Part shown: piece after piece, positions 17,430 through 61,700 of the stretch
Layout of the letters: every line of letters begins with the position of its first letter
Position numbering within the stretch: the first letter of the stretch is position 1
NCBI RefSeq assembly: GCF_053078305.1
Contig: NZ_CP166879.1
DNA length: 64,000 nucleotides
Reading direction: 5' to 3' (one strand)
Notes under the pieces: generated by a model
What the model was told of the DNA's origin: nothing
Databases searched by the model: none
What the model saw: only the letters and a program-made list of their open reading frames with translations
Translations under genes and position numbers: made by a program

Positions 17430-17890
17430 GCCACTATTTATCCCCCGGCGCTTATCTGCCCCACGACGCGCCCATGTTACTGCTGGAAGACGTGGTGAGC
17501 GTCAGCGATGACAGCGCGGTGTGCCGCGTGACGGTTTCGCCCAGTGGCGTACTGGCACCGTTTCTCGACCCGGACGGCAATCTCCCTGGCTGGTTTGCCC
17601 TTGAACTGATGGCGCAAACCGTCGGCGTCTGGTCTGGCTGGCATCGCCACCAGCAGGGCAAAAACAGTATTGAGTTAGGGATGATACTGGGCGCGCGTGA
17701 ATTGCTTTGCGCCGCTGGCATTCTGCCCGCAGGCCAGACGCTGACCATTACCGTCAAACTGCTGATGCAGGACGATCGCTTCGGCAGTTTTGAGTGCAGC
17801 ATCAACGACGGCGAGGCGACGGGCCGCATTAACACCTTCCAGCCGACCGCGGAAGAACTTACCACCCTGTTTCAACAAGGAGCGTCCTGA
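17426..17890 (+). CDS. hotdog-fold dehydratase (FabA/FabZ-like)
   Basis: 154 aa; overlapping start/stop with neighbours. Confidence 0.65.
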   Translation: MSHYLSPGAYLPHDAPMLLLEDVVSVSDDSAVCRVTVSPSGVLAPFLDPDGNLPGWFALELMAQTVGVWSGWHRHQQGKNSIELGMILGARELLCAAGILPAGQTLTITVKLLMQDDRFGSFECSINDGEATGRINTFQPTAEELTTLFQQGAS

Positions 17891-18621
17891 TGAGTCGTTC
17901 AGTTCTGGTTACTGGTGCCAGCAAAGGCATTGGTCGCGCCATCGCCTGCCAACTGGCGGCAGACGGCTTTAACATTGGCGTTCACTATCACCGTGACGCC
18001 ACAGGCGCTCAGGAAACGCTGAATGCCATTGTCGCCAACGGGGGTAACGGGCGTTTGCTCAGTTTCGACGTCGCAAACCGCGAACAGTGTCGGGAAGTGC
18101 TGGAGCATGAGATCGCGCAACACGGTGCCTGGTACGGCGTGGTCAGTAACGCCGGGATCGCCCGCGATGCCGCTTTTCCGGCTTTAAGCGATGACGACTG
18201 GGATGCGGTGATCCACACCAATCTCGACAGTTTCTACAACGTCATTCAGCCGTGCATTATGCCAATGATCGGCGCGCGCCAGGGTGGGCGCATCATCACG
18301 CTGTCCTCGGTTTCCGGCGTAATGGGCAATCGCGGCCAGGTGAATTACAGCGCTGCCAAAGCCGGAATTATCGGCGCAACAAAAGCGCTGGCTATCGAAC
18401 TCGCAAAGCGCAAAATCACCGTCAATTGCATCGCGCCAGGGCTTATTGATACCGGGATGATCGAAATGGAAGAGAGCGCTCTGAAAGAGGCAATGTCGAT
18501 GATCCCCATGAAACGTATGGGCCAGGCGGAAGAAGTTGCCGGGCTTGCCAGTTATTTAATGTCTGATATTGCGGGTTACGTCACCCGCCAGGTTATTTCC
18601 ATCAACGGAGGGATGTTATGA
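17890..18621 (+). CDS. 3-oxoacyl-ACP reductase (FabG-like SDR)
   Basis: 243 aa; TGASKGIGRAIA Rossmann motif and YSAAK catalytic motif. Confidence 0.85.
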   Translation: MSRSVLVTGASKGIGRAIACQLAADGFNIGVHYHRDATGAQETLNAIVANGGNGRLLSFDVANREQCREVLEHEIAQHGAWYGVVSNAGIARDAAFPALSDDDWDAVIHTNLDSFYNVIQPCIMPMIGARQGGRIITLSSVSGVMGNRGQVNYSAAKAGIIGATKALAIELAKRKITVNCIAPGLIDTGMIEMEESALKEAMSMIPMKRMGQAEEVAGLASYLMSDIAGYVTRQVISINGGML

Positions 18622-19847
18622 CACGTCGCGTAGTGATTACAGGAATGGGTGGCGTGACTGCCTTTGGTGAAAACTGGCAGGACGTTTCTGCACGCTTACT
18701 GGCGTATGAAAATGCGGTGCGCAAAATGCCGGAGTGGCAGGTCTACGACGGGCTGCACACCCTGCTTGGCGCGCCTGTTGATGATTTCACGCTACCGGAG
18801 CACTACACCCGCAAGCGTATCCGTGCGATGGGCCGCGTGTCGCAAATGTCGACCCGTGCCAGCGAGCTGGCGTTAGAGCAGGCAGGGTTGATTGGCGATC
18901 CGATATTAACCAGCGGCGAAACGGGCATTGCGTACGGTTCATCGACCGGCAGTACCGGCCCGGTAAGCGAGTTCGCCACCATGCTGACGGAAAAGCACAC
19001 CAATAACATCACTGGCACCACCTATGTGCAGATGATGCCGCACACCACCGCCGTTAATACTGGCCTCTTTTTCGGCCTGCGCGGGCGGGTGATCCCAACC
19101 TCCAGCGCCTGTACTTCCGGCAGCCAGGCAATCGGTTATGCGTGGGAAGCCATTCGCCACGGTTATCAAACGGTGATGGTTGCTGGTGGTGCCGAAGAGT
19201 TATGTCCTTCAGAAGCAGCGGTATTTGATACGCTTTTCGCCACCAGCCAGCACAATGATGCGCCGAAAACCACACCTTCACCGTTCGATGAAAACCGCGA
19301 CGGGCTGGTGATTGGTGAAGGCGCAGGTACGCTCATTCTCGAAGAACTGGAGCACGCCAAAGCGCGCGGCGCGACCATTTACGGTGAAATCGTCGGCTTT
19401 GCGACTAACTGCGACGCGGCACATATTACCCAGCCGCAGCGCGAAACCATGCAGTATTGTATGGAGCAATCGCTGAAAATCGCCGGGTTAAGCGCACAAG
19501 ATATCGGCTATATTTCAGCGCATGGTACGGCGACCGATCGCGGTGATATGGCAGAAAGTCTGGCGACAGCAACCATTTACGGTGATAATGTGCCGCTCTC
19601 CTCGCTGAAAAGTTATTTTGGTCATACGCTTGGTGCCTGTGGCGCGCTCGAAGCCTGGATGAGTCTGCAAATGATGCGCGAAGGTTGGTTTGCGCCTACG
19701 CTAAACCTGAATAAACCAGACCCGAACTGTGGCGCGCTGGATTACATCATGCATGAAGCCCGAAAGGTTGATTGTGAGTTTTTGCAGAGTAACAACTTTG
19801 CCTTTGGCGGCATTAATACATCCATCATCATTAAGCGCTGGCCCTGA
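18618..19847 (+). CDS. beta-ketoacyl-ACP synthase II (FabF-like)
   Basis: 409 aa; KS Cys context (SSACTSG), HGTAT and GHTLGACG motifs; last gene of the cluster. Confidence 0.85.
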   Translation: MTRRVVITGMGGVTAFGENWQDVSARLLAYENAVRKMPEWQVYDGLHTLLGAPVDDFTLPEHYTRKRIRAMGRVSQMSTRASELALEQAGLIGDPILTSGETGIAYGSSTGSTGPVSEFATMLTEKHTNNITGTTYVQMMPHTTAVNTGLFFGLRGRVIPTSSACTSGSQAIGYAWEAIRHGYQTVMVAGGAEELCPSEAAVFDTLFATSQHNDAPKTTPSPFDENRDGLVIGEGAGTLILEELEHAKARGATIYGEIVGFATNCDAAHITQPQRETMQYCMEQSLKIAGLSAQDIGYISAHGTATDRGDMAESLATATIYGDNVPLSSLKSYFGHTLGACGALEAWMSLQMMREGWFAPTLNLNKPDPNCGALDYIMHEARKVDCEFLQSNNFAFGGINTSIIIKRWP

Positions 19848-19856
19848 GTTATACAA

Positions 19857-19885
19857 CCACATGGACATCCCATGTGGTGATTCTT
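19857..19885 (+). terminator. candidate intrinsic terminator after the APE cluster
   Basis: Perfect 8-bp stem CCACATGG / CCATGTGG with 5-nt loop, followed by a T-rich tail, 10 bp after the stop of the last cluster gene. Confidence 0.35.
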
Positions 19886-20157
19886 CAAAAAATCTGAATC
19901 AATGAATATGAACCTCATCCACATTCAACCATTCTTTTGTTTACCATCTGGTTGTCGCCCCCCCTCCAAAAAGCAAATTCTCTTACGCATACTGGAGAGT
20001 ATTCCGTATAAAGATTCAGCTGGCAAAACTTTATCAGTCTGTAAAAACTAACGGAAGAGTCGATATTTCTCCCGTCCATCACCGGATGATTGTTGCAATA
20101 ACCCATAGCATCAGAGACTGAACAGCAGTTTTTAAAGCAACGTATTGCTCTGATGTA

Positions 20158-32059: not shown

Positions 32060-33658
32060 ATGGTAACTCGGACAATGCAACAAAAGTATCAGTATGATCG
32101 TGTTTTATCCGGCGAACTCCACCCATTCCCTGGCATATACGAGGCGGTTTCCGAACAAATCCTTTTGCTCATTTTTAAAGCACGTCAACTATATCAGGAT
32201 CCAGAATATCGCCCCTGGTTTGAAGAACAGCACAGAGTACTCTCTGCATTACGTGCCAATACAGAGCTCCTGAGAATCTTTAGAGAACAAAGAAGCGCTG
32301 AAGAACCAAAGCTTACTATTGAAGAGTCTACCTCCCCCCAACCCACTCCTTCTGCTCTTACAGATGCGCTTAATGTGATGTGCCATTTATACAATGGTTT
32401 TGATGAAGGAAATATCAGTCTGAAAACCTGGGGGGCGATGCAAGAGGTACAGACAACATCAACCTTTATCAGCCCAGGACCGAGAACCTGGAAAACACCT
32501 GAACTGGCAAAGTTTGTAGGAGATGATTTATTTAATATTCTGACTGAATGTAAGGCCTGGAGTTCACCAATTCCAGCAGAAACCCGACAGGGGTATTGCC
32601 ATCAGGATCTGTCTGTTGCACACTCCTGCACCTCAGAGTTACTGGCACACCTGAATCAATATCATGAAATTGATGAATCAGCAATACTTGCCAGAGTTAT
32701 TGGTATAACAGTTAACGGATTCTACAAGAAAAATAATACAGACCTTCCAGAATGGCTATCCCCCTTTAAAGAGGAACATAAAATATTCAGAGATTGTCCG
32801 GAGCAAAATACCGGGGATGTAATCAGACGGAAAGAACAACTGTTGAAAACAGGACGTACAGAATTCGTGAATAATTTGTGTCGGGTCGCCAACTGGTATG
32901 AAATTGAGTCAATATACGATGAATACGTCCGTCTTTATGCCAATGAAATCATTGACTGGTTCAACAAAACCATGAAGTATTTTAAACCAACAGATTTTAT
33001 CCGATATACATGGAAATTCGCAACAGTTACTCCGGATAAAGATACAGAAACCGGGCATACAACTGCATGGGAAAAGGATTATTGCCAGATAACCATACAA
33101 CGTGATGAACTTCTGAGGTTGATTCACACCAATACCCTTCAGGATGCAGTAATTTATCTTTGTCATTGTCTGCAGAAGGAATACAAGAAATCATCCCAAA
33201 ATGAGATAGAGTTCCCAGGAATAAAACCTCCGACATCAGAGAGTAAAATTAATATAACAAATAATATTAAATTTCATTCTCTCCTGGAGCTCAGTAAAGA
33301 TAATGAGAAGCGTCTGGAAACATTTCAAAAATGGTATGAAAAAAATAAAGTTTTGTTAGAAAGTCATAAACAAAAACGAACAGAGAAGATTGACGTTGCC
33401 GTACGACTTGTAGGGCTGAAAGCCTATGATCTGCATGAAGGGATTCCGGATAGTCCAAAACGAAAAGTTAAAGATGGCATAAATGAAGACATCAAAGCCG
33501 ATACCAGTTTACGCCTGTCAAAGACAAATATAAGTGATACGTCGCTAAACCGTTATCGCCGCACTGTTAAGGAGATTATCAATAACGAAATTGACGCATT
33601 CCTGTTGGAACAGAAGAAAAAAATAAAAGATTTCCCTACAGTGAAGATAGAGATGTGA
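32060..33658 (+). CDS. hypothetical protein, 532 aa, no recognisable domain
   Basis: Long clean ORF in low-GC DNA; hydrophilic, Lys/Glu-rich C-terminal region; no motif I can place. Confidence 0.5.
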   Translation: MVTRTMQQKYQYDRVLSGELHPFPGIYEAVSEQILLLIFKARQLYQDPEYRPWFEEQHRVLSALRANTELLRIFREQRSAEEPKLTIEESTSPQPTPSALTDALNVMCHLYNGFDEGNISLKTWGAMQEVQTTSTFISPGPRTWKTPELAKFVGDDLFNILTECKAWSSPIPAETRQGYCHQDLSVAHSCTSELLAHLNQYHEIDESAILARVIGITVNGFYKKNNTDLPEWLSPFKEEHKIFRDCPEQNTGDVIRRKEQLLKTGRTEFVNNLCRVANWYEIESIYDEYVRLYANEIIDWFNKTMKYFKPTDFIRYTWKFATVTPDKDTETGHTTAWEKDYCQITIQRDELLRLIHTNTLQDAVIYLCHCLQKEYKKSSQNEIEFPGIKPPTSESKINITNNIKFHSLLELSKDNEKRLETFQKWYEKNKVLLESHKQKRTEKIDVAVRLVGLKAYDLHEGIPDSPKRKVKDGINEDIKADTSLRLSKTNISDTSLNRYRRTVKEIINNEIDAFLLEQKKKIKDFPTVKIEM

Positions 33659-33782
33659 TTCGACCTTTATGGGGAAAATGCCTGACCGGGCAGTAGATCA
33701 CAGATGGGATAACATCCCGGTTATCCCCTGTTTGTTCTGCTTCAGGTTGCCAGAGCTCCAGGAACACGCGGCAATCGGCAAA

Positions 33783-34379
33783 TTATGCGGCTTTTCCATT
33801 AACAGATTCGGCCACAAGAACAACACCGTGTTTGTTTCGATCAGGATGTTCACTCCAGATTTCTGATTCAGGAATACTTTCCCCATCATAGCAGATCCGA
33901 TCACCATCAAACGGATAATACCGTGCGGAATCTGTATCTAAGATAAACACCTTAAGATTCGTTGAACGACGCGCTATATGCTGCCAGAGGGCTTTACCTC
34001 CTTCATATTGCTCGTTATCACTTAATAGTATAACGCCTGCTTTTGTGGCTATTGTTTCATAAACAAACGTAGCAAGGCTAACATCACGTACAGCGCCATC
34101 GACAACAATCCCTTCAATCTGAGCAACGTCCTGTTCTTCCCAGAATTTCCGGACAAACACCCCTTCAAGCTGTGAACGACGCTGAAGCTCCAGAGTGGCA
34201 ACAACCTTATGGCGAATATCACCATCAATAACAGAAGGTGCAGCTTCGATTACCGCAGCGAACGGAGTCTTTGGATCCCAGATGATCTGGTAAAGCACAC
34301 CCTGAATAGTTACTCCATCCAGTATCGAAAAACGACGAGCTACAGTAGCAGGGGAGTAAGACATTGGAATGACAGCCAT
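33783..34379 (-). CDS. hypothetical protein, 198 aa
   Basis: ORF convergent with the 532-aa ORF; no family recognised. Confidence 0.45.
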   Translation of the reverse strand: MAVIPMSYSPATVARRFSILDGVTIQGVLYQIIWDPKTPFAAVIEAAPSVIDGDIRHKVVATLELQRRSQLEGVFVRKFWEEQDVAQIEGIVVDGAVRDVSLATFVYETIATKAGVILLSDNEQYEGGKALWQHIARRSTNLKVFILDTDSARYYPFDGDRICYDGESIPESEIWSEHPDRNKHGVVLVAESVNGKAA

Positions 34380-35526
34380 TTTATGACCTAAAATTTGAAA
34401 ACATCAGTATCAATACTGACCTCATCAGTCTGAGCATATATTGATAAAGTTTTTATGTTTACACTCAATAAATACCTTGCCAAACAACTAATAGCGATGT
34501 CTACATTGCCATTCGACATGCTTACAATTTTTGTCAACAAGAAAGTGAATTTATATCAACGGTAAGAAGTAAACACGAGGACACCAAAACCAAATGTACA
34601 CACTTTTGTGCTTTGTGTCCCCTGTGTGTACCCAAATGACAAACTGCAAGAAAATCTAGGCACACACTTATCTAACTTATTGATTTAAATGGTGCGATAA
34701 TAGGAATAAAACAAAAGATAAAAATCAATTGATATTTAACAATTTTTTATTGTTGTGTTTTCAATGATACCCCCAAAAGTACCCCCAAATAATTTTATTC
34801 CCTGTCAAAAACTGATAAATGCTCTCAGATATGAGCATTCCTATAGAGGGTTATATCCAGCAAAAAACATGATCCAGTAAAACATCTCGTCGACCAGTTG
34901 CATGGCACGCTCTGTTTTATCCGGGTGCACGGCGTGATTCTGCCCATGCATTACAATCGCCCTGAAGACTTCACATGTATTACTCACTAATTGTGTATCT
35001 TCTTGTGACGTTGGAGTCAACCGTAGTGTTATCGCGCTACGTTTTTTGGCTCCAGCTATAGTACTGCACTTTTTGAGTAGTGACCTACATTTTTCATGCC
35101 GTGTTCCCCTATCCCCGCCCTCTCATCCGCACATCGAATTTCAAGCCTCCTGCAAACCTGCATGACGCTTTCTGGAATATTGCGCCAGCGTTCAATTTAT
35201 CCCCGTTTCTGCGGATGTCTGACCGTGAGCGGCGGTGACTGGTTAACGACGTTATGCAGATACACCTGCACTTAAAAGATAACCGTAGGGATGTGACGAA
35301 ACTTTTGTAGGCTCAGTTTCGGGAGGGGGAACAATAGTCATTATGACCATTCAACCACCAACCAATATCCATGATTCTCTCCCGAATTAGTGATACACCT
35401 TTACCCCTGAGCTCTTCTCAAACAAAGGCTTTATGAAATGTATTTACAAACATCCGGACAGGGGACTGATACACTTTCATTTGCCCCCTCCCCGGCCGAC
35501 TCTTCCTTCTTACAGATTCTGAATAA

Positions 35527-36927
35527 TTATTGTTCGAACTTCGGAGCAATCAGATTATCAAGATTGAATGTCTTCTCCCATTCTTCCTGTGTGAGTAGCT
35601 TACGTTCGACAACCACTATCTGATGGAGGGATTTACCTGTATGGTATGCTTCGTGCGCCATTTCAGAACACACCTTATATCCCAGATGTGGCTTCAGGAG
35701 AGTCACAATACCGCAGGAATGCATTACCATCTCTGCAGTTCGATCGGAATTGGCTGTAATGCCATCAATGCATTTAGTACGGAGTGTGTTGCAGGCATTC
35801 GTCATCACCTTGAGTGAGGTGAACAGCGCAAAAGTGATAACCGGCTCCATAACGTTAAGCTCAAGCTGACCTGCGGATGCCGCCAGCATCACTGTGGTGT
35901 CCAGCCCCTGAACCAGGAAGCAAGACTGGTTTGTTACTTCCGGGATAACAGGGTTAACCTTACCAGGCATAATGGAAGAACCCGGTTGTAACTGAGGCAG
36001 GTTAATTTCAGCCAGTCCGCAACGGGGACCTGAAGCAAGCAACCGAATGTCATTACAAACCTTGGTAAGCTTCACAGAGAGGCTCTTCATGGCCGAACTA
36101 AGTGCAACGTATGCACCACAGTCGCTTGTGGCAGCGATGAGATCTTCACTGTTCCTGAAATTAATACCTGTGAACTGGGCCAGGTATTTCACGGCTAAAG
36201 CGGGATAATCCGGGTGAGCAGTAACACAGGTACCAATCGCAGTAGCACCAAGGTTTACAACCCGCAGGTGTTCCTGCGCATTGCGGATGACCCGAATTTC
36301 ATCATTAATTGTAAAACCCCAGCCATGAAACTCCTGACCGAGGGTCATTGGCACTGCATCCTGCAGATGAGTGCGTCCCATCTTGAGTACTCTGCTGAAT
36401 TCGTCAGCCTTTTTGTAGAATGCCCCAACAAGGTGTTCAACAGCCTCAAGCAATACATTGCTTCGCAGCAGCAATGCCAGATGTAATGCTGTCGGATATG
36501 TATCATTGGTGGACTGACCAAAATTAGCATGGTCGTTTGGCGAAACGCGTTTGTAATCCCCTTTAACGCTACCAAGTTTTTCTGCAGCAAGATTACAAAT
36601 CACTTCATTGCAGTTCATATTGGTTGACGTTCCGGCTCCTCCCTGAAGCCAGTCGGTCACAAACTGTTCCCGGTACTTACCATCAATTAATTGGTCGCAA
36701 GCCCAGATTAAAGCATCCGCAACATCAGCAGGAATTGTACCTAACTCCTTATTAGCCATCGCAGCTGCTTTTTTCACATAACCGAAGGCAATGATGAAGA
36801 AGGGCTCCTGACTCATTGGCATTTCAGTAATATGGAAATTATCCTCACCACGAAGTGTCTGAACACCATAATAGCAATCATCCGGAACTTCACGCTCACC
36901 AAGGAAATCACTTTCAGTACGAGACAT
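35527..36927 (-). CDS. aspartate ammonia-lyase family enzyme (aspartase/fumarase class II fold)
   Basis: 466 aa; signature GSSIMPGKVNPV and the TNDTYPTA region; about half-identical to AspA by eye. Confidence 0.85.
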   Translation of the reverse strand: MSRTESDFLGEREVPDDCYYGVQTLRGEDNFHITEMPMSQEPFFIIAFGYVKKAAAMANKELGTIPADVADALIWACDQLIDGKYREQFVTDWLQGGAGTSTNMNCNEVICNLAAEKLGSVKGDYKRVSPNDHANFGQSTNDTYPTALHLALLLRSNVLLEAVEHLVGAFYKKADEFSRVLKMGRTHLQDAVPMTLGQEFHGWGFTINDEIRVIRNAQEHLRVVNLGATAIGTCVTAHPDYPALAVKYLAQFTGINFRNSEDLIAATSDCGAYVALSSAMKSLSVKLTKVCNDIRLLASGPRCGLAEINLPQLQPGSSIMPGKVNPVIPEVTNQSCFLVQGLDTTVMLAASAGQLELNVMEPVITFALFTSLKVMTNACNTLRTKCIDGITANSDRTAEMVMHSCGIVTLLKPHLGYKVCSEMAHEAYHTGKSLHQIVVVERKLLTQEEWEKTFNLDNLIAPKFEQ

Positions 36928-37163
36928 AATTTTCTAACTCCATTTTTCAAAAACAACGATTATAATTATGAATTGTTTAACCGGAACTATGCTCTCGGAA
37001 TTTGAACTCTCAACTTCATTGAATAAGAACCTCGATAACATGTGATTTCAATCTGTCAGAATTCTTCTGACAGTCAGTAACTGAATGCAAATTAACTGCC
37101 TGACTAATTATCAAATAGTAACTCTGTAACTACTTCCATAAAGAATGAAAAATTATGATTCTG

Positions 37164-38462
37164 TCAGACCACCATTGGTGCAATCACAAACCCAAATGTC
37201 ACTCCTGCAATAACACCTCCCAACCCGGGTAGCATAAATGGGTGATTTAATACATATTTGCCCACACGGGTTGTACCGGTAGTATCAAATTCCATCGCGG
37301 CCAGTGATGTTGGATACGTTGGAAGCACGAATACTCCCGTAACGGCAACATAAGATGCAAGAATTGCCCAGGTGGGTACATCAAGCGCCACAGCAAGCGG
37401 AATAATTAACGGCGTGGTCGCGCCTTGCGAGTAGAGCAGAGCACAAGTGCCAAAAAGAACCAGCGCCAACAACATCGGATAGGCCTGCAAAATATCGCCA
37501 GCAGTATCCTTAATCTCGGTTAAATGCGCATCAATAAAAGTAGTGCCTAAGGTTACAATGCCGAGAATCACCGCCAGCGAGCTCATCCCCGCACGAAATG
37601 TGGAGGTGAGAATAATGGCATCGGTAGCCGTCTTGCACAGCACCACCATCAGGCAGGCGGCAGAGAGCATACAGATAATAATAATATCGCGTGTTTCCAT
37701 CGGTTTGCCGATATCAAACCCCGGACGCAGTTGAGGGAAAGCGGCAAGAATAACAATGGCGACCGTCGCCAGCAGGAACAATCCTACGGAAAGCGTCGCA
37801 CCAGGTTTGATGCTGCTATTATTCTCGTATTTATGCACCAGTCCTTTTTGCAGACGCTCAAGATAGACCTCGTCATCCTGCAACTCACATCCTTGTCGGG
37901 AAGCAATAAAAGCGGCGACCATCGCGGCGGCAAAAGAGGTAGGAAGACATACCGACATCACCTCAATAAAACTGACGCCGTTAACCTCCATAATAGTGAG
38001 CATAGCAGCCATTGCGGCGCTGATCGGCGAACCAGAAATCGCTACCTGCGAAGCAACGACCGAACCGGCGAGCGTGCGGGAAGGACGAATACCTGACTCT
38101 TTCGCAACTTCAGCAATCACCGGCAGTGTGGAAAAAACAATAAATCCGGTACCGGCCATAATAGTCATTGACCAGGTAATAATCGGCGCGATGATGTTGA
38201 TATATTTCGGGTTACGACGCATAAAATTACCGGCGACGCGTACCAGATAATCCATTCCGCCTGCGGCCTGTAATGCTGAAGCCGCCACAACAACAGTCAT
38301 AATAATCAGGATCACGTCTACTGGCGGTGACCCCATAGGCAGACCAAATCCCAGAGTCAGGATAGCGAGTCCAAGCCCGCCACATAAACCAATACCGATC
38401 CCTCCCTGGCGAATACCAAAAAATATTGCGCCAAGTACTACGATAATTTCCAGCCAAACCAT
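37164..38462 (-). CDS. anaerobic C4-dicarboxylate transporter, DcuA/DcuB family
   Basis: 432 aa, polytopic membrane protein with Dcu-family character. Confidence 0.8.
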   Translation of the reverse strand: MVWLEIIVVLGAIFFGIRQGGIGIGLCGGLGLAILTLGFGLPMGSPPVDVILIIMTVVVAASALQAAGGMDYLVRVAGNFMRRNPKYINIIAPIITWSMTIMAGTGFIVFSTLPVIAEVAKESGIRPSRTLAGSVVASQVAISGSPISAAMAAMLTIMEVNGVSFIEVMSVCLPTSFAAAMVAAFIASRQGCELQDDEVYLERLQKGLVHKYENNSSIKPGATLSVGLFLLATVAIVILAAFPQLRPGFDIGKPMETRDIIIICMLSAACLMVVLCKTATDAIILTSTFRAGMSSLAVILGIVTLGTTFIDAHLTEIKDTAGDILQAYPMLLALVLFGTCALLYSQGATTPLIIPLAVALDVPTWAILASYVAVTGVFVLPTYPTSLAAMEFDTTGTTRVGKYVLNHPFMLPGLGGVIAGVTFGFVIAPMVV

Positions 38463-38528
38463 GATGTTCTCCGTTATAAATATAATTTTTTCTAAAAGTG
38501 AATGACTTTCTGGCTGCGATTAAAATGA

Positions 38529-39248
38529 TTATTGGGTTAGAATATGCTGTTTTCCGACACGATTTTCATACCATTTTATTCCGGCGCGAACGAGTGAAGC
38601 AGTTGAGTCAATATAATGAGAAGGCTGTGCTTTAACAGCTTCTGCCAGAATAACCGGAATTTCCGTACAACCAAGAACAAGAACTTCAGCGCCGCGAGAA
38701 AATAGTATTTCAGCCTGCTCGCTCATCAACTGTTGTGCATGCGTCATATCGCCAGCTTTCAAAGAATAAATACTTTCCATTACTTTTTTCTGACTGTCTG
38801 CATCGGGGCGGATACAGGTAAGTCCCAGCGACTCAATTCCTTTTTGGTATAATCCCATATACAGCGTAGCATTGGTGGCTAACAGGCCAATGCGGGTTTT
38901 ACCACAGTCGCGAACTTCATTGATCGTTGTCTCTACGATACTTAATATATCAATATGACAAGCATCTTTTAATTCTTTGAACCAGTAATGTGCGGTATTA
39001 CAGGGAATAACAATACATTCCGCCCCGGCATCTTCCAGTTTATGCATATAGTCACGCATAACAGGTAACGGCGAGCGCCCATGATGCATTAATGCATCGG
39101 TACGGTCAGGAATATTCGGAATAGAAGAAATAATTAATGGAATATGTTCCTGATCACGTTGTGCGGTGGTAAACGTCACAAATTTATTAAACAGATCGAC
39201 GGTAGCCGCCGGCCCCATTCCGCCGAGCACACCGATTAAACCTTTCAT
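38529..39248 (-). CDS. aspartate/glutamate racemase family protein (putative aspartate racemase)
   Basis: 239 aa; GVLGGMGPAAT N-terminus and the two catalytic-Cys contexts (CNTAH; GCTE). Confidence 0.8.
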   Translation of the reverse strand: MKGLIGVLGGMGPAATVDLFNKFVTFTTAQRDQEHIPLIISSIPNIPDRTDALMHHGRSPLPVMRDYMHKLEDAGAECIVIPCNTAHYWFKELKDACHIDILSIVETTINEVRDCGKTRIGLLATNATLYMGLYQKGIESLGLTCIRPDADSQKKVMESIYSLKAGDMTHAQQLMSEQAEILFSRGAEVLVLGCTEIPVILAEAVKAQPSHYIDSTASLVRAGIKWYENRVGKQHILTQ

Positions 39249-39601
39249 AATCTTTACCTCTCAGAACCTCAATAATAAATCTTAAATAACTACATCTCAT
39301 TTTTTAACAGTCTCCAATGGTTATGAGAAATGCAATGTTGTACAATGTAATGCAAGACTTGCATACTGTGGCTTTGTAATATATGAGCAATTTAGCATTG
39401 TGGCGTGAATACCTTTCATAATGATGAAAACAAACGCTTTTTGACGAGGTGTTAAACTTGTTTCGATACAAAAAATGAATGAATCATGCATAAAACGAAT
39501 AAGAAAATTTCAAATATGTTATCTGTAAACATTACTTTGATTTTCGGGGAAGTATCTTAACTAAGATTTGATAATAGTGGGATAATAGTGGGATTATAGA
39601 A

Positions 39602-40507
39602 ATGAAAAATATAGAGACAAAATGGTTATATGATTTTCTGGCGCTGGAAGCCTGTCGCAGTTTTTGTCAGGCAGCAAAAGAACGTAACCTTTCACAACCA
39701 GCATTCAGCAGAAGAATAAAGGCGTTAGAGTCAGCGATTGGTGTTGTTTTGTTCGATCGTACAACCTCACCTGTACAATTAACTGAAGAGGGTAGGCTTT
39801 TTCACTCCCAGACACGCAGTTTAGTGCAGCAGCTTGAATGCAATCTGAATGAATTAGGGGGGCTAAATTCATTCAATTTGCCCAATATTAAGATTGCAGC
39901 TGCTCACTCATTATCCCTCAGCATATTACCTAAACTGGTGTACTCACTCACTACCTTTGGCGGAGATTTTATCTATCATGTTGAGGCTATTGATGTTGTC
40001 CAAGCCGTAAATACATTACGAGAAGGGAAGAGTGACTTTGTTATTTCATTTCGAGATGAGGAGTTTATGCAATCGCCATTTTGCTACCTGAAACTGTTTG
40101 AGTCTGAGCTATATCCGGTATGTGCTGCTGATCAGCGGGGAAAACCAATTTTTGATATTACCCATTCACAGACCCCTTTGCTCAACTATACTCCAACTTC
40201 TTATATGGGCAGACTGGTTAATCATCATTTAGCAGAGTTAGGAGGGATATCCGGACACACAATTTTTGTATCTTCAATGAGTGAACTACTAAAAAATATG
40301 GCGCTCAATGGACTTGGTATTGCCTGGCTTCCACTCTGGTCAATTGCTGATGAGCTGAAGACCAAACGTCTTGTATGCCCGGGTTCAACTAAATGGACCG
40401 TGCCTATTCAGGCTTATATTTATCGTATGGATACTCGGCTGAATAAAACAGCTGAACACTTTTGGACGATTTTACGAAATAACATTGAAAAACTCAATGG
40501 TGAATAA
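39602..40507 (+). CDS. LysR-family transcriptional regulator, divergent from the racemase operon
   Basis: 301 aa; N-terminal LysR HTH (FCQAAKERNLSQPAFSRRIKALE) and substrate-binding domain. Confidence 0.85.
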   Translation: MKNIETKWLYDFLALEACRSFCQAAKERNLSQPAFSRRIKALESAIGVVLFDRTTSPVQLTEEGRLFHSQTRSLVQQLECNLNELGGLNSFNLPNIKIAAAHSLSLSILPKLVYSLTTFGGDFIYHVEAIDVVQAVNTLREGKSDFVISFRDEEFMQSPFCYLKLFESELYPVCAADQRGKPIFDITHSQTPLLNYTPTSYMGRLVNHHLAELGGISGHTIFVSSMSELLKNMALNGLGIAWLPLWSIADELKTKRLVCPGSTKWTVPIQAYIYRMDTRLNKTAEHFWTILRNNIEKLNGE

Positions 40508-55797: not shown

Positions 55798-58700
55798 TTA
55801 CACTACATTAGTGATTCTCTCATCAATCAGAACCTGTACATCAGGAACCGAAGCATGTGTATAAATGTTATAAGTGATATCCCCTTCAGACTCAGTGCTT
55901 CCTTTAATCCAGTTATACCCATTGTCACTGAGGTTATCCCCGTTATTACCGAGGTCAACCCGAGAACTACCATCACCTGTGACTTTGAGTTTATTACCCT
56001 CTATAGAGGCAGAATTTAAATTCTCAGCCAACAAATTCAGTGCAGCTCCATCTTTCAGTTCAATCTTCTCAAAACCAGAGAATGTGTTGCTTGTGGCATT
56101 ACCCTGATGAATAACCAAGGTATCAAATCCAGAACCACCTTTAATATTTGAAGCATTATCAATATTAGCCACAATATCGATTACATCATTACCAGCACCT
56201 AAATCCAAGGTTGATGATTTGAGCGCAGCAAGAGAATTACCTCCTAACAATAACAGGCTGTCATTTCCATCTTCCATAGTAACAGTCGTTTTCTCTATAA
56301 AACCACCATTATTTGGGTATCCCGAATCATTATCAGGTATTATGATATCTCCATCCAGTCGTTGATACTTAGCGGTTTCTTCAATGCGGTAAGAACCATC
56401 CTTCCCATATACGACATCATAACCGCCTCGACCAAAACCAACTATCAGGATATCATCACCGATACCTGTATTTACCTCGGTCCATAGATCACTATATCCA
56501 ATCCCCAAATCACGACCAGTCACGATGGTATCGTCACCTGCACCAGTATCGACAACCATTGGTCTTACCCAGCGAGAAACGCCCAGATTCCCCAGTGACA
56601 GTTCAGTCGTAATTATATTATCCCCCTCTGTCATTTCCAGTAGAGCGACGTTATTAGCACCATTCTTACTTATTACATAAACATTTGTCCCTACATTTGC
56701 CTCATGAGCCTTAATGGCCAAGAATGATTTAGAATCTTTTTGTAAATCATCATCAGCGATTTTGACCTTTTGACCTGAGCCAGCTGTAACTCCATGACCT
56801 TGCGTCATGTTTACATTACCTGTATAGATAACGGTTCCAATCCGATCTATTGCATCCGGCTTGCCGTTGCCGTTTTCATCCACTGCCGGTACATCGATAC
56901 CGTCAACTTTAGCCAGACGCCCGTTCAGACCGTCCTTCGCATCTCCGGCCGGCAGACCTTCCACCGCTTTCGCCGCATCTGCTTTCGCCGCCGTTACCGC
57001 ATCGTTCTTCGCCGCAAGATCATCATGCTCCTGCTGGGTGATCTTATTGTCAGCCTTCGCCTGAGTCAGCGCCGCTTCTGCTTCTTTTTCCTTCGCTTCC
57101 GCTTCTGCTACCTTGGCTGTCGCTGCATTCACCGCCTCTGCTGCTTCCTCTGCATCCGGCTTGCCGTTGCCGTTTTCATCCACTGCCGGTACATCGATAC
57201 CGTCAACTTTAGCCAGACGCCCGTTCAGACCGTCCTTCGCATCTCCGGCCGGCAGACCTTCCACCGCTTTCGCCGCATCTGCTTTCGCCGCCGTTACCGC
57301 ATCGTTCTTCGCCGCAAGATCATCATGCTCCTGCTGGGTGATCTTATTGTCAGCCTTCGCCTGAGTCAGCGCCGCTTCTGCTTCTTTTTCCTTCGCTTCC
57401 GCTTCTGCTACCTTGGCTGTCGCTGCATTCACCGCCTCTGCTGCTTCCTCTGCATCCGGCTTGCCGTTGCCGTTTTCATCCACTGCCGGTACATCGATAC
57501 CGTCAACTTTAGCCAGACGCCCGTTCAGACCGTCCTTCGCATCTCCGGCCGGCAGACCTTCCACCGCTTTCGCCGCATCTGCTTTCGCCGCCGTTACCGC
57601 ATCGTTCTTCGCCGCAAGATCATCATGCTCCTGCTGGGTGATCTTATTGTCAGCCTTCGCCTGAGTCAGCGCCGCTTCTGCTTCTTTTTCCTTCGCTTCC
57701 GCTTCTGCTACCTTGGCTGTCGCTGCATTCACCGCCTCTGCTGCTTCCTCTGCATCCGGCTTGCCGTTGCCGTTTTCATCCACTGCCGGTACATCGATAC
57801 CGTCAACTTTAGCCAGACGCCCGTTCAGACCGTCCTTCGCATCTCCGGCCGGCAGACCTTCCACCGCTTTCGCCGCATCTGCTTTCGCCGCCGTTACCGC
57901 ATCGTTCTTCGCCGCAAGATCATCATGCTCCTGCTGGGTGATCTTATTGTCAGCCTTCGCCTGAGTCAGCGCCGCTTCTGCTTCTTTTTCCTTCGCTTCC
58001 GCTTCTGCTACCTTGGCTGTCGCTGCATTCACCGCCTCTGCTGCTTCCTCTGCATCCGGCTTGCCGTTGCCGTTTTCATCCACTGCCGGTACATCGATAC
58101 CGTCAACTTTAGCCAGACGCCCGTTCAGACCGTCCTTCGCATCTCCGGCCGGCAGACCTTCCACCGCTTTCGCCGCATCTGCTTTCGCCGCCGTTACCGC
58201 ATCGTTCTTCGCCGCAAGATCATCATGCTCCTGCTGGGTGATCTTATTGTCAGCCTTCGCCTGAGTCAGCGCCGCTTCTGCTTCTTTTTCCTTCGCTTCC
58301 GCTTCTGCTACCTTGGCTGTCGCTGCATTCACCGCCTCTGCTGCTTCCTCTGCATCCGGCTTGCCGTTGCCGTTTTCATCCACTGCCGGTACATCGATAC
58401 CGTCAACTTTAGCCAGACGCCCGTTCAGACCGTCCTTCGCATCTCCGGCCGGCAGACCTTCCACCGCTTTCGCCGCATCTGCTTTCGCCGCCGTTACCGC
58501 ATCGTTCTTCGCCGCAAGATCATCATGCTCCTGCTGGGTGATCTTATTGTCAGCCTTCGCCTGAGTCAGCGCCGCTTCTGCTTCTTTTTCCTTCGCTTCC
58601 GCTTCTGCTACCTTGGCTGTCGCTGCATTCACCGCCTCTGCTGCTTCCTCTGCATCCGGCTTGCCGTTGCCGTTTTCATCCACTGCCGGTACATCGATAC

Positions 58701-61700
58701 CGTCAACTTTAGCCAGACGCCCGTTCAGACCGTCCTTCGCATCTCCGGCCGGCAGACCTTCCACCGCTTTCGCCGCATCTGCTTTCGCCGCCGTTACCGC
58801 ATCGTTCTTCGCCGCAAGATCATCATGCTCCTGCTGGGTGATCTTATTGTCAGCCTTCGCCTGAGTCAGCGCCGCTTCTGCTTCTTTTTCCTTCGCTTCC
58901 GCTTCTGCTACCTTGGCTGTCGCTGCATTCACCGCCTCTGCTGCTTCCTCTGCATCCGGCTTGCCGTTGCCGTTTTCATCCACTGCCGGTACATCGATAC
59001 CGTCAACTTTAGCCAGACGCCCGTTCAGACCGTCCTTCGCATCTCCGGCCGGCAGACCTTCCACCGCTTTCGCCGCATCTGCTTTCGCCGCCGTTACCGC
59101 ATCGTTCTTCGCCGCAAGATCATCATGCTCCTGCTGGGTGATCTTATTGTCAGCCTTCGCCTGAGTCAGCGCCGCTTCTGCTTCTTTTTCCTTCGCTTCC
59201 GCTTCTGCTACCTTGGCTGTCGCTGCATTCACCGCCTCTGCTGCTTCCTCTGCATCCGGCTTGCCGTTGCCGTTTTCATCCACTGCCGGTACATCGATAC
59301 CGTCAACTTTAGCCAGACGCCCGTTCAGACCGTCCTTCGCATCTCCGGCCGGCAGACCTTCCACCGCTTTCGCCGCATCTGCTTTCGCCGCCGTTACCGC
59401 ATCGTTCTTCGCCGCAAGATCATCATGCTCCTGCTGGGTGATCTTATTGTCAGCCTTCGCCTGAGTCAGCGCCGCTTCTGCTTCTTTTTCCTTCGCTTCC
59501 GCTTCTGCTACCTTGGCTGTCGCTGCATTCACCGCCTCTGCTGCTTCCTCTGCATCCGGCTTGCCGTTGCCGTTTTCATCCACTGCCGGTACATCGATAC
59601 CGTCAACTTTAGCCAGACGCCCGTTCAGACCGTCCTTCGCATCTCCGGCCGGCAGACCTTCCACCGCTTTCGCCGCATCTGCTTTCGCCGCCGTTACCGC
59701 ATCGTTCTTCGCCGCAAGATCATCATGCTCCTGCTGGGTGATCTTATTGTCAGCCTTCGCCTGAGTCAGCGCCGCTTCTGCTTCTTTTTCCTTCGCTTCC
59801 GCTTCTGCTACCTTGGCTGTCGCTGCATTCACCGCCTCTGCTGCTTCCTCTGCATCCGGCTTGCCGTTGCCGTTTTCATCCACTGCCGGTACATCGATAC
59901 CGTCAACTTTAGCCAGACGCCCGTTCAGACCGTCCTTCGCATCTCCGGCCGGCAGACCTTCCACCGCTTTCGCCGCATCTGCTTTCGCCGCCGTTACCGC
60001 ATCGTTCTTCGCCGCAAGATCATCATGCTCCTGCTGGGTGATCTTATTGTCAGCCTTCGCCTGAGTCAGCGCCGCTTCTGCTTCTTTTTCCTTCGCTTCC
60101 GCTTCTGCTACCTTGGCTGTCGCTGCATTCACCGCCTCTGCTGCTTCCTCTGCATCCGGCTTGCCGTTGCCGTTTTCATCCACTGCCGGTACATCGATAC
60201 CGTCAACTTTAGCCAGACGCCCGTTCAGACCGTCCTTCGCATCTCCGGCCGGCAGACCTTCCACCGCTTTCGCCGCATCTGCTTTCGCCGCCGTTACCGC
60301 ATCGTTCTTCGCCGCAAGATCATCATGCTCCTGCTGGGTGATCTTATTGTCAGCCTTCGCCTGAGTCAGCGCCGCTTCTGCTTCTTTTTCCTTCGCTTCC
60401 GCTTCTGCTACCTTGGCTGTCGCTGCATTCACCGCCTCTGCTGCTTCCTCTGCATCCGGCTTGCCGTTGCCGTTTTCATCCACTGCCGGTACATCGATAC
60501 CGTCAACTTTAGCCAGACGCCCGTTCAGACCGTCCTTCGCATCTCCGGCCGGCAGACCTTCCACCGCTTTCGCCGCATCTGCTTTCGCCGCCGTTACCGC
60601 ATCGTTCTTCGCCGCAAGATCATCATGCTCCTGCTGGGTGATCTTATTGTCAGCCTTCGCCTGAGTCAGCGCCGCTTCTGCTTCTTTTTCCTTCGCTTCC
60701 GCTTCTGCTACCTTGGCTGTCGCTGCATTCACCGCCTCTGCTGCTTCCTCTGCATCCGGCTTGCCGTTGCCGTTTTCATCCACTGCCGGTACATCGATAC
60801 CGTCAACTTTAGCCAGACGCCCGTTCAGACCGTCCTTCGCATCTCCGGCCGGCAGACCTTCCACCGCTTTCGCCGCATCTGCTTTCGCCGCCGTTACCGC
60901 ATCGTTCTTCGCCGCAAGATCATCATGCTCCTGCTGGGTGATCTTATTGTCAGCCTTCGCCTGAGTCAGCGCCGCTTCTGCTTCTTTTTCCTTCGCTTCC
61001 GCTTCTGCTACCTTGGCTGTCGCTGCATTCACCGCCTCTGCTGCTTCCTCTGCATCCGGCTTGCCGTTGCCGTTTTCATCCACTGCCGGTACATCGATAC
61101 CGTCAACTTTAGCCAGACGCCCGTTCAGACCGTCCTTCGCATCTCCGGCCGGCAGACCTTCCACCGCTTTCGCCGCATCTGCTTTCGCCGCCGTTACCGC
61201 ATCGTTCTTCGCCGCAAGATCATCATGCTCCTGCTGGGTGATCTTATTGTCAGCCTTCGCCTGAGTCAGCGCCGCTTCTGCTTCTTTTTCCTTCGCTTCC
61301 GCTTCTGCTACCTTGGCTGTCGCTGCATTCACCGCCTCTGCTGCTTCCTCTGCATCCGGCTTGCCGTTGCCGTTTTCATCCACTGCCGGTACATCGATAC
61401 CGTCAACTTTAGCCAGACGCCCGTTCAGACCGTCCTTCGCATCTCCGGCCGGCAGACCTTCCACCGCTTTCGCCGCATCTGCTTTCGCCGCCGTTACCGC
61501 ATCGTTCTTCGCCGCAAGATCATCATGCTCCTGCTGGGTGATCTTATTGTCAGCCTTCGCCTGAGTCAGCGCCGCTTCTGCTTCTTTTTCCTTCGCTTCC
61601 GCTTCTGCTACCTTGGCTGTCGCTGCATTCACCGCCTCTGCTGCTTCCTCTGCATCCGGCTTGCCGTTGCCGTTTTCATCCACTGCCGGTACATCGATAC

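Follow-up and report, generated by a model that had tools for sequence, protein, structure and literature searches.

Two convergent open reading frames (ORFs) lie next to each other in a 64,000-nucleotide stretch of DNA (RefSeq assembly GCF_053078305.1, contig NZ_CP166879.1; hereafter the window), and databases label both genes 'hypothetical', which raises the question of what they encode and whether they act as one system or as two. Searches of the literature by protein accession found no paper. An initial annotation had placed ORFs of 532 and 198 amino acids within a low-GC island, and both were confirmed at 32060..33658 (+) and 33783..34379 (-), each starting with ATG and separated by 124 bp. 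The GC content of the region is 0.36-0.43, as compared to 0.52-0.59 further left, and the GC3 is 0.34-0.36, as compared to 0.60 in the neighboring 666-aa gene. Across island lineages, the 198-aa gene has a dN/dS of 0.03-0.16 and the large gene one of 0.25-0.46, and both proteins have full-length homologues in several genera, which indicates that both ORFs are far beyond chance ORFs. The description of both as clean ORFs held only in the sense that they are real genes, because the 532-aa ORF is truncated by a frameshift relative to the intact protein of 545 aa, whose family we refer to as 54x.

The thrW island and its gene pair

The features of the locus are as follows.

27566..28159, minus strand: YfjJ / 'inovirus-type Gp2' family gene, leftmost gene of the island remnant (RefSeq annotation of syntenic loci L001 and L002)
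29112..30578, minus strand: YfjI-family (DUF3987) gene, putative replication or primase-type module (RefSeq annotation of L001 and L002)
30809..31036, minus strand: DUF3987 N-terminal fragment, pseudogene ('DUF3987, incomplete' in RefSeq for L001 and L002)
31141..31368, minus strand: alpA, AlpA-family HTH regulator, 75 aa, with the frame open to 31389 (PF05930 in sibling loci)
31741..31756, no strand: perfect CRP-consensus palindrome TGTGATAATCATCACA, in the divergent intergenic region of alpA and 54x
31969..32059, plus strand: conserved sequence directly 5' of the large ORF (blastn comparison with L011 and L015)
32060..33658, plus strand: large ORF of the 54x family, 532-aa frameshifted allele of a 545-aa protein
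33617..33623, plus strand: poly-A tract and frameshift site, A7 here and A8 in intact alleles (alignment and allele counts)
33706..33727, plus strand: GC-rich hairpin GGGATAAC-ATCCCG-GTTATCCC, in the convergent intergenic space (terminator-like scan)
33783..34379, minus strand: gene for the 198-aa predicted GNAT-fold protein, PHROG 7522, long form of P1 PmgF
34690..34705, minus strand: att remnant, 16 nt that reproduce the final 17 nt of tRNA-Thr (thrW) minus one base

The block that is syntenic with thrW islands of other E. coli spans 27604-34705, with its right end inside the tRNA 3' end. The att remnant is the original tRNA-proximal end of the island, and tRNA-Thr occupies this position in L001 and L002. 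Within the window, an integrase and an intact tRNA are both absent, and IS66 scraps are found on the left side. Positions 30765-31136 repeat positions 30289-30661 at 77% identity, which together with the DUF3987 fragment indicates a partial duplication of yfjI. The alpA gene and the large ORF are transcribed divergently, and the block that is homologous between island lineages extends from 31969 to 34383 (blastn against L011 and L015). The hairpin starts 10 nt past the stop codon of the intact frame of the large ORF and is a plausible shared terminator of the convergent genes.

The gene pair occurs in 695 of 5,426 complete E. coli genomes, or about one in eight. Variable cargo, as had been initially proposed, is not what we observed: all 11 distinct loci examined in the E. 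coli/Salmonella island family share the order GNAT, 54x, alpA, and within this family the slot content is constant and only the 54x allele changes. The eight loci that retain an integrase all read int, GNAT, 54x, alpA, which in sibling islands is followed by yfjI and gp2. Integrases of the sibling islands feature Arm-DNA-bind_3 and Phage_integrase domains, and these islands adjoin nfeF, with no tRNA at their site. In either form, the GNAT gene is flanked by the convergent 54x gene and, at its opposite end, by the att scar or the integrase.

One of the closest known layouts is that of CP4-57 in K-12 (ssrA, intA, yfjH, alpA, yfjI, yfjJ), whose order and orientations match the island family: an RNA-gene attachment site, an integrase, a gene divergent from alpA, and then alpA, yfjI and yfjJ. 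The likeness is distant, with 41% identity (E 2e-114) between the window YfjI-family protein and K-12 YfjI, 25% between the YfjJ-family proteins, and 24% between the CP4-57 and sibling-island integrases. In contrast to the island family, CP4-57 lacks the GNAT gene, and the window island sits at thrW without an integrase while its siblings lie beside nfeF. YfjH, the positional analogue of 54x, was rejected as a homologue (hhalign probability 0.2%). The same slot is filled by unrelated genes in related elements, namely yfjH in CP4-57 and a set encoding 137-aa, 540-aa and 385-aa proteins in a Vibrio island, which agrees with the original placement of the pair in an accessory slot, here between the integrase end (attachment site) and alpA. 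The proposed P4-like setting did not hold in the strict sense. In RefSeq, the syntenic islands are annotated with Gp2/YfjJ, YfjI, alpA and two hypothetical genes only, and psu, delta and sid are annotated in none of the sibling loci. By this annotation, the island does not appear to be a P4-like satellite with core psu, delta, sid and alpha primase genes in a cos-adjacent layout. P4-like (int-psu), PICMI (prim-fis) and P2-like hotspots likewise contain small accessory loci between conserved genes, and such loci often hold defence genes (PMC9122126, PMC10803314, bioRxiv 10.64898/2026.02.27.708500). The window island differs in having neither P4 markers nor a known defence family, and in a slot that is constant rather than swapped.

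The 198-aa protein: predicted fold and carriers

The initial annotation found no motif in either protein, which is incorrect for the 198-aa protein. An AF2 model (pLDDT 80, pTM 0.79) predicts a GNAT fold with the order beta1-alpha1-alpha2-beta2-4-alpha3-beta5-alpha4-beta6-7. GNAT motif A (Q/R-x-x-G-x-G/A) occupies the beta4-alpha3 loop and binds the CoA pyrophosphate, and by inspection the protein contains R98-D-V-S101-L-A103 directly before helix 100-113, a motif-A-like R98-x-x-[G/S]101-x-A103. Both clades of the family retain the pattern [R/K]-x-x-G-L-[A/G], which in the distant one reads K/R-x-x-G-L-G; conservation of G101 is at least 90%, and L102 does not vary in either clade. Other conserved residues are S120, D121, Q124, G127, G128, W132, R137, D148, Y164, D165 and W175. 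The window allele encodes Ser at the near-invariant Gly101, and Gly101Ser was considered as an inactivating lesion and rejected because the allele is common, being shared by 80 of 494 genomes.

The fold and the strand-helix order of the model match those of the GNAT superfamily (Hat1, NatD, RimI-like, AtaT, Mu Mom), with R-x-x-G-x-A preceding alpha3, whereas identity to any solved GNAT is at most 17%. Structural neighbors of the model include aminoglycoside acetyltransferases and AtaT, the latter being one among many GNATs, and one NCBI record names the protein simply 'N-acetyltransferase'. None of 25 family members matched a Pfam profile, nor was there a match in NCBIfam or a sequence match in PDB. 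Alignment to E. coli YafP by hhalign gave a probability of 0.08%, and the sole aligned stretch comprised beta4 and motif A, in register. A resemblance to an ABC signature and Walker B (E 0.085) was dismissed once the fold was clear. As modeled, the 198-aa protein would be a divergent GNAT-fold acyltransferase of the acyl-CoA type, and acyl transfer is its putative activity.

The protein matches phrog_7522 (E 1.2e-126), with residues 1-198 on profile positions 13-210 of 210, and is 88% identical to gp016 of SJ46, the 'long PmgF' of SJ46 and RCS47. P1 PmgF (98 aa) shares about 44% identity over residues 4-66 and corresponds to the N-terminal beta sub-domain alone, without motif A and everything past the motif. 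The label of PmgF, 'putative morphogenetic function', is based on position only, and P1 pmgF is non-essential (PMC10695390). The idea that P1 pmgF arose by recent truncation of the GNAT gene was discarded, given 43% identity and no C-terminal remnant. The model-based assignment would give the PmgF/PHROG 7522 family a concrete activity to test; this family is present in more than 100 P1-like phage-plasmids, which are vehicles of resistance genes.

The GNAT gene is found without 54x in about 124 P1-like phage-plasmids, as well as in other phages and plasmids. In P1-like phage-plasmids, it takes the first position of a swappable region after bplB, which varies among these plasmids (PMC6906374); in P1, the short relative pmgF occupies this slot. 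At two independent loci it directly follows darA-ddrA: on an Enterobacter F-like plasmid, where it lies beside a KlcA/ArdB gene and near traM, and in a P1-related element, where it is inside a darA-ddrA-[GNAT]-ddrB operon on the same strand. Large phages encode it within early-type gene blocks. Dar proteins are head-internal, co-ejected anti-restriction factors that protect DNA from type I restriction (PMC12810830), and GNAT-fold enzymes are an established theme on mobile elements in genetic conflict, with GNAT domains recurring in proteins that phages and conjugative elements deliver (PMC5512222). The Dar operon of P1 (DarA, DdrA, DdrB, Hdf, DarB, Ulx) contains no GNAT gene, the window contains no dar genes, and the island GNAT adjoins an integrase rather than anti-restriction genes. 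AcrVA5 is a GNAT anti-CRISPR. These associations, which are positional, point to counter-defence by invading elements and not to host defence. A GNAT-fold enzyme is linked by gene position to the Dar anti-restriction operon, and if this link is true, enzymatic acylation of protein or DNA would join the known anti-restriction strategies of phages and plasmids.

No known family of defence proteins, toxins or effectors matches either protein of the pair (PADLOC, NCBIfam, Pfam), in contrast to the kinds of cargo suggested for this position, and PADLOC-DB contained zero families at E <= 1 for either. The 198-aa gene does not resemble the toxin of a toxin-antitoxin pair: no RHH- or DUF1778-type antitoxin is adjacent, and no PADLOC or NCBIfam toxin profile matches.

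The 54x family: frameshift, local divergence and a CRP-type palindrome

In the window, a 1-nt deletion in the poly-A run shifts the 54x frame, which if intact would end near 33696. The shift costs the last 27 of 545 residues, including the invariant P536 and W538 and the nearly invariant K540, and RefSeq flags the A7 copy as frameshifted and treats it as a pseudogene. The exact A7 allele is present in just 1 of the 307 complete E. coli genomes that carry the segment, and phase variation at the tract was rejected on that count. Because the frameshift is rare and sited in a homopolymer, it may have arisen very recently or reflect a sequencing error. Read as it stands, the sequence indicates that 54x in the window is truncated and probably impaired. 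A frameshifted 54x gene lies beside an intact GNAT gene in two genomes, which suggests that 54x is not an essential antidote.

The 54x protein is soluble, consists mostly of alpha-helices and has an orphan fold. Its C-terminal domain (residues 413-545) is basic, with a pI of 9.6, and two blocks are hypervariable (residues 241-280 and 361-440), with dN/dS up to about 0.8. A 54x profile recovered only family members in a deep HMM search of 1.84 billion representatives, and searches of Pfam (with single proteins and with every alignment member), NCBIfam, PADLOC and PDB sequence profiles returned nothing. Fold searches gave no functional anchor, leaving 54x an orphan in both sequence and fold. No nuclease, NTPase, protease or TM effector domain was detectable; Pfam reported no HTH, and the predicted C-terminal helices form no canonical HTH.

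The distribution of 54x is sporadic and rare, with 0 matches in 50,697 phage records. The gene occurs without GNAT in Klebsiella, Vibrio, Pectobacterium, Proteus and Serratia, and each gene is thus found without the other, in keeping with the earlier proposal of independent genes rather than a single operon. The settings of 54x include a P2-like prophage, where it lies between gpV and gpS and opposite to the late genes, the variable region of an ICE, IS-flanked plasmid DNA near DUF4145 and Dcm genes, and int-alpA islands. Its neighbor is always divergent, at a spacing of about 340 bp or about 700 bp, and is an acidic protein of 137-149 aa, a 118-aa protein, a Gly/Ala-rich and 88-aa pair, or AlpA. 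The upstream region in the window contains no remnant of the small acidic partner, which has no family match, and no credible small ORF was found in the intergenic region. An Rfam search over 27000-35600 found nothing. PADLOC detected only weak matches to defence families among the neighbors of homologues.

Comparison of island lineages revealed that divergence is limited to alpA, the intergenic region and 54x. In L022, identities are 95.2% for yfjI, 86.7% for alpA, 69.1% for 54x, 98.0% for GNAT and 98.6% for int; in L027, the corresponding values are 95.6%, 84.0%, 72.7%, 98.5% and 99.5%. GNAT is 92-99% identical where 54x is 57-73% identical. The alpA gene co-varies with 54x across island lineages, and the intergenic DNA is unalignable between lineages except around the palindrome. 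The 54x and alpA genes form a variable module of the kind seen in immunity regions, flanked on both sides by a near-identical backbone, and the co-variation could be plain linkage within one recombination tract.

The palindrome in the intergenic region is a perfect TGTGA-N6-TCACA site, which by sequence identifies a candidate CRP-type promoter element near 54x. One such site is observed in the 64-kb window versus 0.09 expected, and the 13 perfect sites in about 460 kb of analyzed loci are all at this position, with three further perfect sites in L027, L029 and L030. Every lineage has a perfect or one-mismatch site upstream of 54x except the Klebsiella P2-like prophage, in which the palindrome is deleted. 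In the window, its center is 311 nt before the 54x ATG, and the site doubles as an extended -10 (TGnGATAAT) on the plus strand; its position differs between clades, being about 22 nt before the ATG in one case and 311-383 nt in the other. Half-sites and spacing match cAMP-CRP sites perfectly, often with extended TGTGAT/ATCACA and A/T-rich flanks, whereas placement about 22-29 nt or >300 nt before the ATG is unusual for activation by CRP. The palindrome may instead be the operator of an element-encoded protein; because it is identical to the host CRP consensus, binding by 54x need not follow. Across the intergenic regions, operator-like repeats stayed at chance level, with no convincing repeated operators, and promoter-like matches were not above shuffled expectation.

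Candidate functions and alternative explanations

We tentatively favor a reading that is possible, though short of probable, in which both ORFs are genuine, separately mobile accessory genes that became fixed jointly in the integrase-alpA slot of a CP4-57-like integrative island, one encoding a GNAT counter-defence enzyme and the other a 54x sensor-regulator. In the same reading, the window island is an immobile remnant that lost its integrase, duplicated part of yfjI and now ends at a thrW att scar that adjoins a different island. The natural carriers of GNAT would be invading elements, and on their entry or induction the enzyme would most likely acylate a host or nucleic-acid target, which would serve counter-defence or host takeover. 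The variable helical body of 54x would recognize a signal or partner, its conserved basic C-terminal domain would bind nucleic acid, presumably DNA, and the protein would govern the shared divergent promoter region, which serves the alpA operon here and small effector-like genes elsewhere. The conserved CRP-type palindrome would supply cAMP-CRP input or be the operator of 54x itself.

In phage immunity regions, and for the SaPI master repressor Stl, a regulator is divergent from the activation operon of the element. By analogy, 54x would sit in the regulator position, with allele-like divergence in a near-identical backbone; it differs from Stl in having no sequence or fold similarity to it and in a family that also occurs without an alpA operon. 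A bolder version, which we consider unlikely, holds that 54x is the conserved sensor-regulator half of an undescribed modular switch of Gammaproteobacterial mobile elements, located beside a new GNAT-type counter-restriction enzyme. In such a switch, the CRP-type box would gate a helical, hypervariable protein whose basic tail binds DNA. This protein would control any gene divergent from its own: in E. coli and Salmonella alpA, and through it induction of the island, and elsewhere the gene for an acidic protein or Gly-zipper-like peptide. If true, 54x would represent the first Stl-like family of master regulators for Gram-negative int-alpA islands, or else a defence sensor of a new kind whose effectors can be exchanged. 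The copy inside P2 late genes fits a regulator role poorly, unless its acidic neighbor is the target. The evolutionary signature of the 545-aa family is in any case very unusual, combining allele-like divergence in a near-identical island, co-variation with alpA and a CRP-type box. Silencing and induction of enterobacterial int-alpA islands are poorly understood, and a dedicated sensor-regulator, if true, would make the question testable.

The accessory slots in which 54x occurs (P2-like prophage, ICE, IS-flanked plasmid DNA, int-alpA islands) could also be explained if the large protein worked by itself as a novel kind of anti-phage defence or superinfection-exclusion factor. Resident elements would express it, an arms race would have shaped its hypervariable helical blocks into surfaces that recognize phages, and its neighbors would be irrelevant or antidotes. 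The sporadic, rare distribution and the local divergence, with the elevated dN/dS of the variable blocks, are in line with this idea, as are P2 late-gene and satellite slots, which are documented defence hotspots (PMC9122126; bioRxiv 10.64898/2026.02.27.708500). However, 54x has no PADLOC match and no detectable effector domain, is absent from the phage records, and remains constant, not swapped, in the E. coli island family; defence would also leave the conserved upstream palindrome and the regular divergent partner unexplained, and we judge it unlikely as well. Far less credible still, and in our view highly improbable, is a single two-gene system, whether a GNAT toxin or modifier with a regulator or antidote or a two-component defence system. 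Genes in convergent orientation cannot be co-transcribed, both are widespread on their own, their divergence is discordant, no RHH- or DUF1778-type antitoxin is adjacent, and the frameshifted 54x persists beside an intact GNAT gene.

For the GNAT protein, the diversity of GNATs, the single 'N-acetyltransferase' record and the aminoglycoside acetyltransferases and AtaT among its structural neighbors would suit an ordinary metabolic or resistance acetyltransferase, or a tRNA-acetylating toxin of the toxin-antitoxin type, carried as neutral or host-beneficial cargo with no genetic conflict. We regard this as quite improbable given that no resistance, metabolic or toxin profile matches, that the gene is carried by phages, phage-plasmids, a plasmid leading region and islands, and that it directly follows darA and ddrA at two independent loci and has no antitoxin partner. 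The locus in this genome could also be an inert relic, immobile, with 54x inactivated and neither gene giving a phenotype. The absent integrase, the duplicated yfjI fragment and the IS66 scraps are consistent with decay, as are the loss of the conserved 54x tail through A7 and the pseudogene label in RefSeq. Nevertheless, we consider an inert relic somewhat unlikely: only the last 27 of 545 residues are lost, through a homopolymer frameshift seen in one of 307 genomes that is possibly very recent or a sequencing error, the GNAT gene is intact and under strong purifying selection, and the integrase-less thrW form is 99% conserved in several strains.

The two ORFs and the island that carries them

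The initial annotation described two convergent ORFs as cargo of a low-GC island, and we recovered both at the same coordinates, separated by a gap of 124 bp:

32060..33658, + strand, large ORF (54x family), 532 aa
33783..34379, - strand, small ORF, 198 aa

The low GC was borne out as well, with 36-43% G+C in the ORF stretch compared with 52-59% in the left flank, and GC3 of both ORFs is 0.34-0.36 compared with 0.60 in the adjacent 666-aa gene. RefSeq labels each a 'hypothetical protein'. Full-length homologues of each are known from several genera, and comparison between island lineages gives dN/dS values of 0.03-0.16 (small gene) and 0.25-0.46 (large gene). Both ORFs are real genes.

The window DNA is from E. 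coli, and the 2.6-kb ORF region was found in 695 of 5,426 complete genomes, with coverage of at least 80% in 602. In other strains, the block 27604-34705 directly adjoins thrW, where the gene order is tRNA-Thr, 198 aa, 545 aa, alpA, DUF3987 fragment, YfjI and Gp2/YfjJ. A tRNA search of the 64-kb window found none, and the synteny limit at 34690-34705 corresponds to the last 17 nt of tRNA-Thr minus one base (a 16-nt copy); the intact tRNA must lie outside the window. The thrW form of the island has no integrase, and the element in the window is an immobile remnant. Joined to an intact P4-type integrase, the module (order int, 198, 54x, alpA, yfjI or an alternative module, gp2) adjoins nfeF in E. 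coli and was also seen once near ypjA and in one Salmonella record; the integrase of these sibling islands is present in 436 genomes. Using ARAGORN, we detected no tRNA or tmRNA beside the nfeF/yqjH-site integrase within comparison loci L011, L012, L018, L022-L024 and L027, which indicates that the att site of the P4-type integrase there is not a tRNA gene, unlike that of the thrW-linked window copy.

The layout of CP4-57 of K-12 (intA, yfjH, alpA, yfjI, yfjJ) is the same as that of the window island type and its YfjI is 41% identical to the island YfjI, which points to a CP4-57-like rather than a P4-like island, although CP4-57 YfjH bears no relation to the large 54x protein. The 5' part of yfjI is duplicated (30289-30661 and 30765-31136, 77% identical), a feature that several sibling islands share and others lack, and this internal duplication left a DUF3987 N-terminal pseudogene at 30809-31036, between yfjI and alpA.

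Right after the thrW att scar lies a second low-GC island (34706-40507), an arrangement that suggests tandem accretion of islands at thrW:

35527-36927, aspartate ammonia-lyase (aspA) paralogue
37164-38462, Dcu-type C4-dicarboxylate transporter
38529-39248, CuyB/Asp-racemase-like gene
39602-40507, HypT-like LysR regulator, followed by IS fragments

The 198-aa gene and its carriers

The small ORF had been reported to carry no assignable motif. This holds for sequence profile searches, none of which detected a GNAT relationship, but not for its structure model, which has a GNAT fold. The blindness of the profiles indicates that the 198-aa protein constitutes a divergent, unclassified family of predicted GNAT fold. 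One NCBI record (that for P0039) names it 'N-acetyltransferase', in agreement with the fold result. The window protein has Ser101, where most members have Gly, and the Ser101 allele is common (80 of 494 genomes).

In the P1-like phage-plasmids SJ46 and RCS47, the pmgF slot is filled by GNAT copies with 88% identity; the gene occurs on ~124 plasmid records. The 98.8% identity between P1 and SJ46 breaks off ~40 nt past bplB, which indicates that the GNAT gene is the first gene of a swappable region. In P1-like elements the region after bplB varies (PMC6906374), and pmgF of P1 is non-essential (PMC10695390). P1 PmgF ('putative morphogenetic function'; L007 4995-5291) is a short old relative of the GNAT N-terminal sub-domain (43% over 65 aa, compared with SJ46, L006 4965-5597). 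It retains only that sub-domain, without motif A and the entire C-terminal half, and its name therefore reflects position only.

At two independent loci, the genes immediately before a GNAT homologue are darA and ddrA, which serve P1 in anti-restriction. On an Enterobacter F-like plasmid (L019 7001-7606), a darA fragment and a ddrA-like gene precede the GNAT gene, which is ~3 kb from traM, and a KlcA/ArdB gene adjoins these two; a P1-related element (L031/L032 6001-6636) has the GNAT gene within an operon of the order lydB, darA, ddrA, GNAT, ddrB. Dar proteins counter restriction and are co-ejected (PMC12810830), leading regions of plasmids are anti-defence islands (PMC11541004), and GNAT domains are a repeated finding in the proteins that phages and conjugative elements deliver (PMC5512222). 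More distant homologues are found amid small early-type genes of large phages.

The 54x family and its divergent control region

The 54x family of 500-560-aa gammaproteobacterial proteins is very small: a word-index search returned 37 clusters, and a full HMM search through 1.84 billion protein representatives gave only 41 hits (~15 full-length clusters). The protein is predicted to be soluble with zero TM segments; a basic C-terminal domain (413-545; pI 9.6, net +9) follows an acidic to neutral remainder. Some public records of the family (AFDB A0ABC7ZZ27, A0A085GKA2) carry the unsupported label 'tRNA-dihydrouridine synthase'.

All 54x homologues share a conserved C-terminal tail (I-x-P-L-W-x-K) that is missing from the window protein. 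DNA alignment revealed a 1-nt loss in a poly-A run (A7 vs A8), and the resulting frameshift removes 27 residues of the basic domain from the intact 545-aa protein. Among 307 complete genomes that have the segment, A7 is matched exactly by just one (ETEC1738, whose 54x gene RefSeq marks as frameshifted), compared with 22 exact A8 matches, which points to either a recent, rare lesion or an error in the homopolymer. The same counts led us to reject phase variation at the run.

Homologues of 54x occupy accessory positions in very different elements, and none was found in sequenced phage records:

Klebsiella P2-like prophage, between gpV and gpS, opposite to the late genes
IncFII and other plasmids, with IS elements on the flanks
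Pectobacterium, adjoining a T4SS
Proteus ICE, within transfer genes
Vibrio, between int and alpA
Serratia, adjoining IS110
Chromosomal islets

At each locus with an upstream neighbour gene, 54x is divergent from it; in Serratia the upstream DNA is an IS110. Klebsiella, Vibrio and Pectobacterium all have a very acidic partner of 137-149 aa with a DNA-mimic-like composition (pI ~4, D+E at least 30%, 60-70% conserved; L008 7225-7662, L005 9245-9658, L010 465-914, L016 5200-5649). In Proteus the partner is an unrelated 118-aa protein, and in E. coli and Salmonella the alpA operon. The most divergent members face a Gly/Ala-rich, glycine-zipper-like 104-107-aa protein and then an 88-aa protein (L029 1974-2588; L030 5062-5667). 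A known-family search on the acidic, 118-aa, Gly/Ala-rich and 88-aa partners returned zero matches.

Alignment of 54x upstream regions brought out the palindrome TGTGA-N6-TCACA in otherwise unconserved AT-rich DNA; it is identical to the cAMP-CRP consensus. The window holds a single perfect copy (31741-31756; 0.09 expected per 64 kb). In the analysed loci (~460 kb), 13 perfect palindromes all lie upstream of 54x, with zero elsewhere, and L027, L029 and L030 hold three more at the same position. The palindrome occurs at equivalent sites in L001-L005, L010-L013, L015-L018, L022-L025, L027, L029 and L030, and precedes 54x in all lineages but the Klebsiella P2-like prophage, where it is deleted. 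Half-sites and A/T flanks are kept between lineages, the spacer is variable, and the palindrome overlaps an extended -10-like TGnGATAAT. Its centre lies 20-29 nt before the 54x ATG in distant clades and 311-383 nt before it in E. coli and Salmonella, about halfway to alpA. Whether for CRP or for the 54x protein, the palindrome is a candidate site. A lineage-specific short palindrome follows ~40 nt downstream, at the same aligned position (window ~31785-31800; L011 ~7715-7735; L022 ~3790-3808), where the window type has TCTGTT-GCTG-AACAGA and the 69% type TGTCATT-GA-AATGACA; either an operator particular to each lineage or an RNA hairpin may be encoded there.

Protein identity (%) to the thrW-type island
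L022: yfjI 95.2, alpA 86.7, 54x 69.1, GNAT 98.0, int 98.6
L027: yfjI 95.6, alpA 84.0, 54x 72.7, GNAT 98.5, int 99.5
Salmonella type: 54x 58, GNAT 92, integrase 98

These identities indicate divergence limited to 54x, alpA and the DNA between them, with alpA tracking 54x. The 54x protein is itself built of alternating conserved (residues 161-200, 95%) and hypervariable (241-280 and 361-440, ~45%) blocks, with local dN/dS of up to ~0.8 in the latter. Such a pattern is characteristic of a phage immunity region or a recombination-exchanged specificity determinant.

Possible functions and remaining features

We hold the anatomy of the locus with high confidence, and its function more tentatively. 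Our preferred joint reading, which we put at somewhat below an even chance, is that the GNAT protein would be a putative acyltransferase for counter-defence or host modification, and that the 545-aa protein would be a putative sensor-regulator at the divergent control region common to 54x and its neighbour. That 54x is instead a new stand-alone defence protein seems improbable, and that the GNAT is an ordinary acetyltransferase or TA toxin more improbable still. For this frameshifted copy, an inert relic is unlikely but deserves more weight than either.

A two-gene system of 54x and GNAT is the least probable reading of all. The two genes are neighbours in every examined E. coli and Salmonella island, and the homology block between island lineages (31969-34383) covers exactly this pair. 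Three points oppose a functional link: the orientation is convergent, both genes are often found alone, and their degrees of divergence disagree. We keep the original suggestion of separate cargo genes and treat the two as independent genes that became fixed together within this island family.

Upstream of the island, ~10000-19900 (placed by synteny with L002 1-11853) holds a fatty-acid/polyketide-type cluster of acyl carrier proteins, ketoacyl-ACP synthases, dehydratase, FabG2, glycosyltransferase, MMPL transporter and LolA-like genes, which resembles an aryl-polyene-type locus. Decayed sugar-utilisation genes and an 'enterotoxin'/alpha-galactosidase-like gene (25089-27089) follow. Farther right, a giant ORF has two neighbours:

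52301-53527, YadA-like autotransporter
53770-55698, RTX/PueAB-like protein
55798..62871, - strand, giant ORF, 2357 aa

Inside the giant ORF, an array of 18.1 copies of a 300-bp unit at 100% identity (56851-62292) explains why composition at 57-62 kb is periodic and strongly skewed. That the copies are identical throughout suggests either an array that expanded very recently or an assembly collapse.
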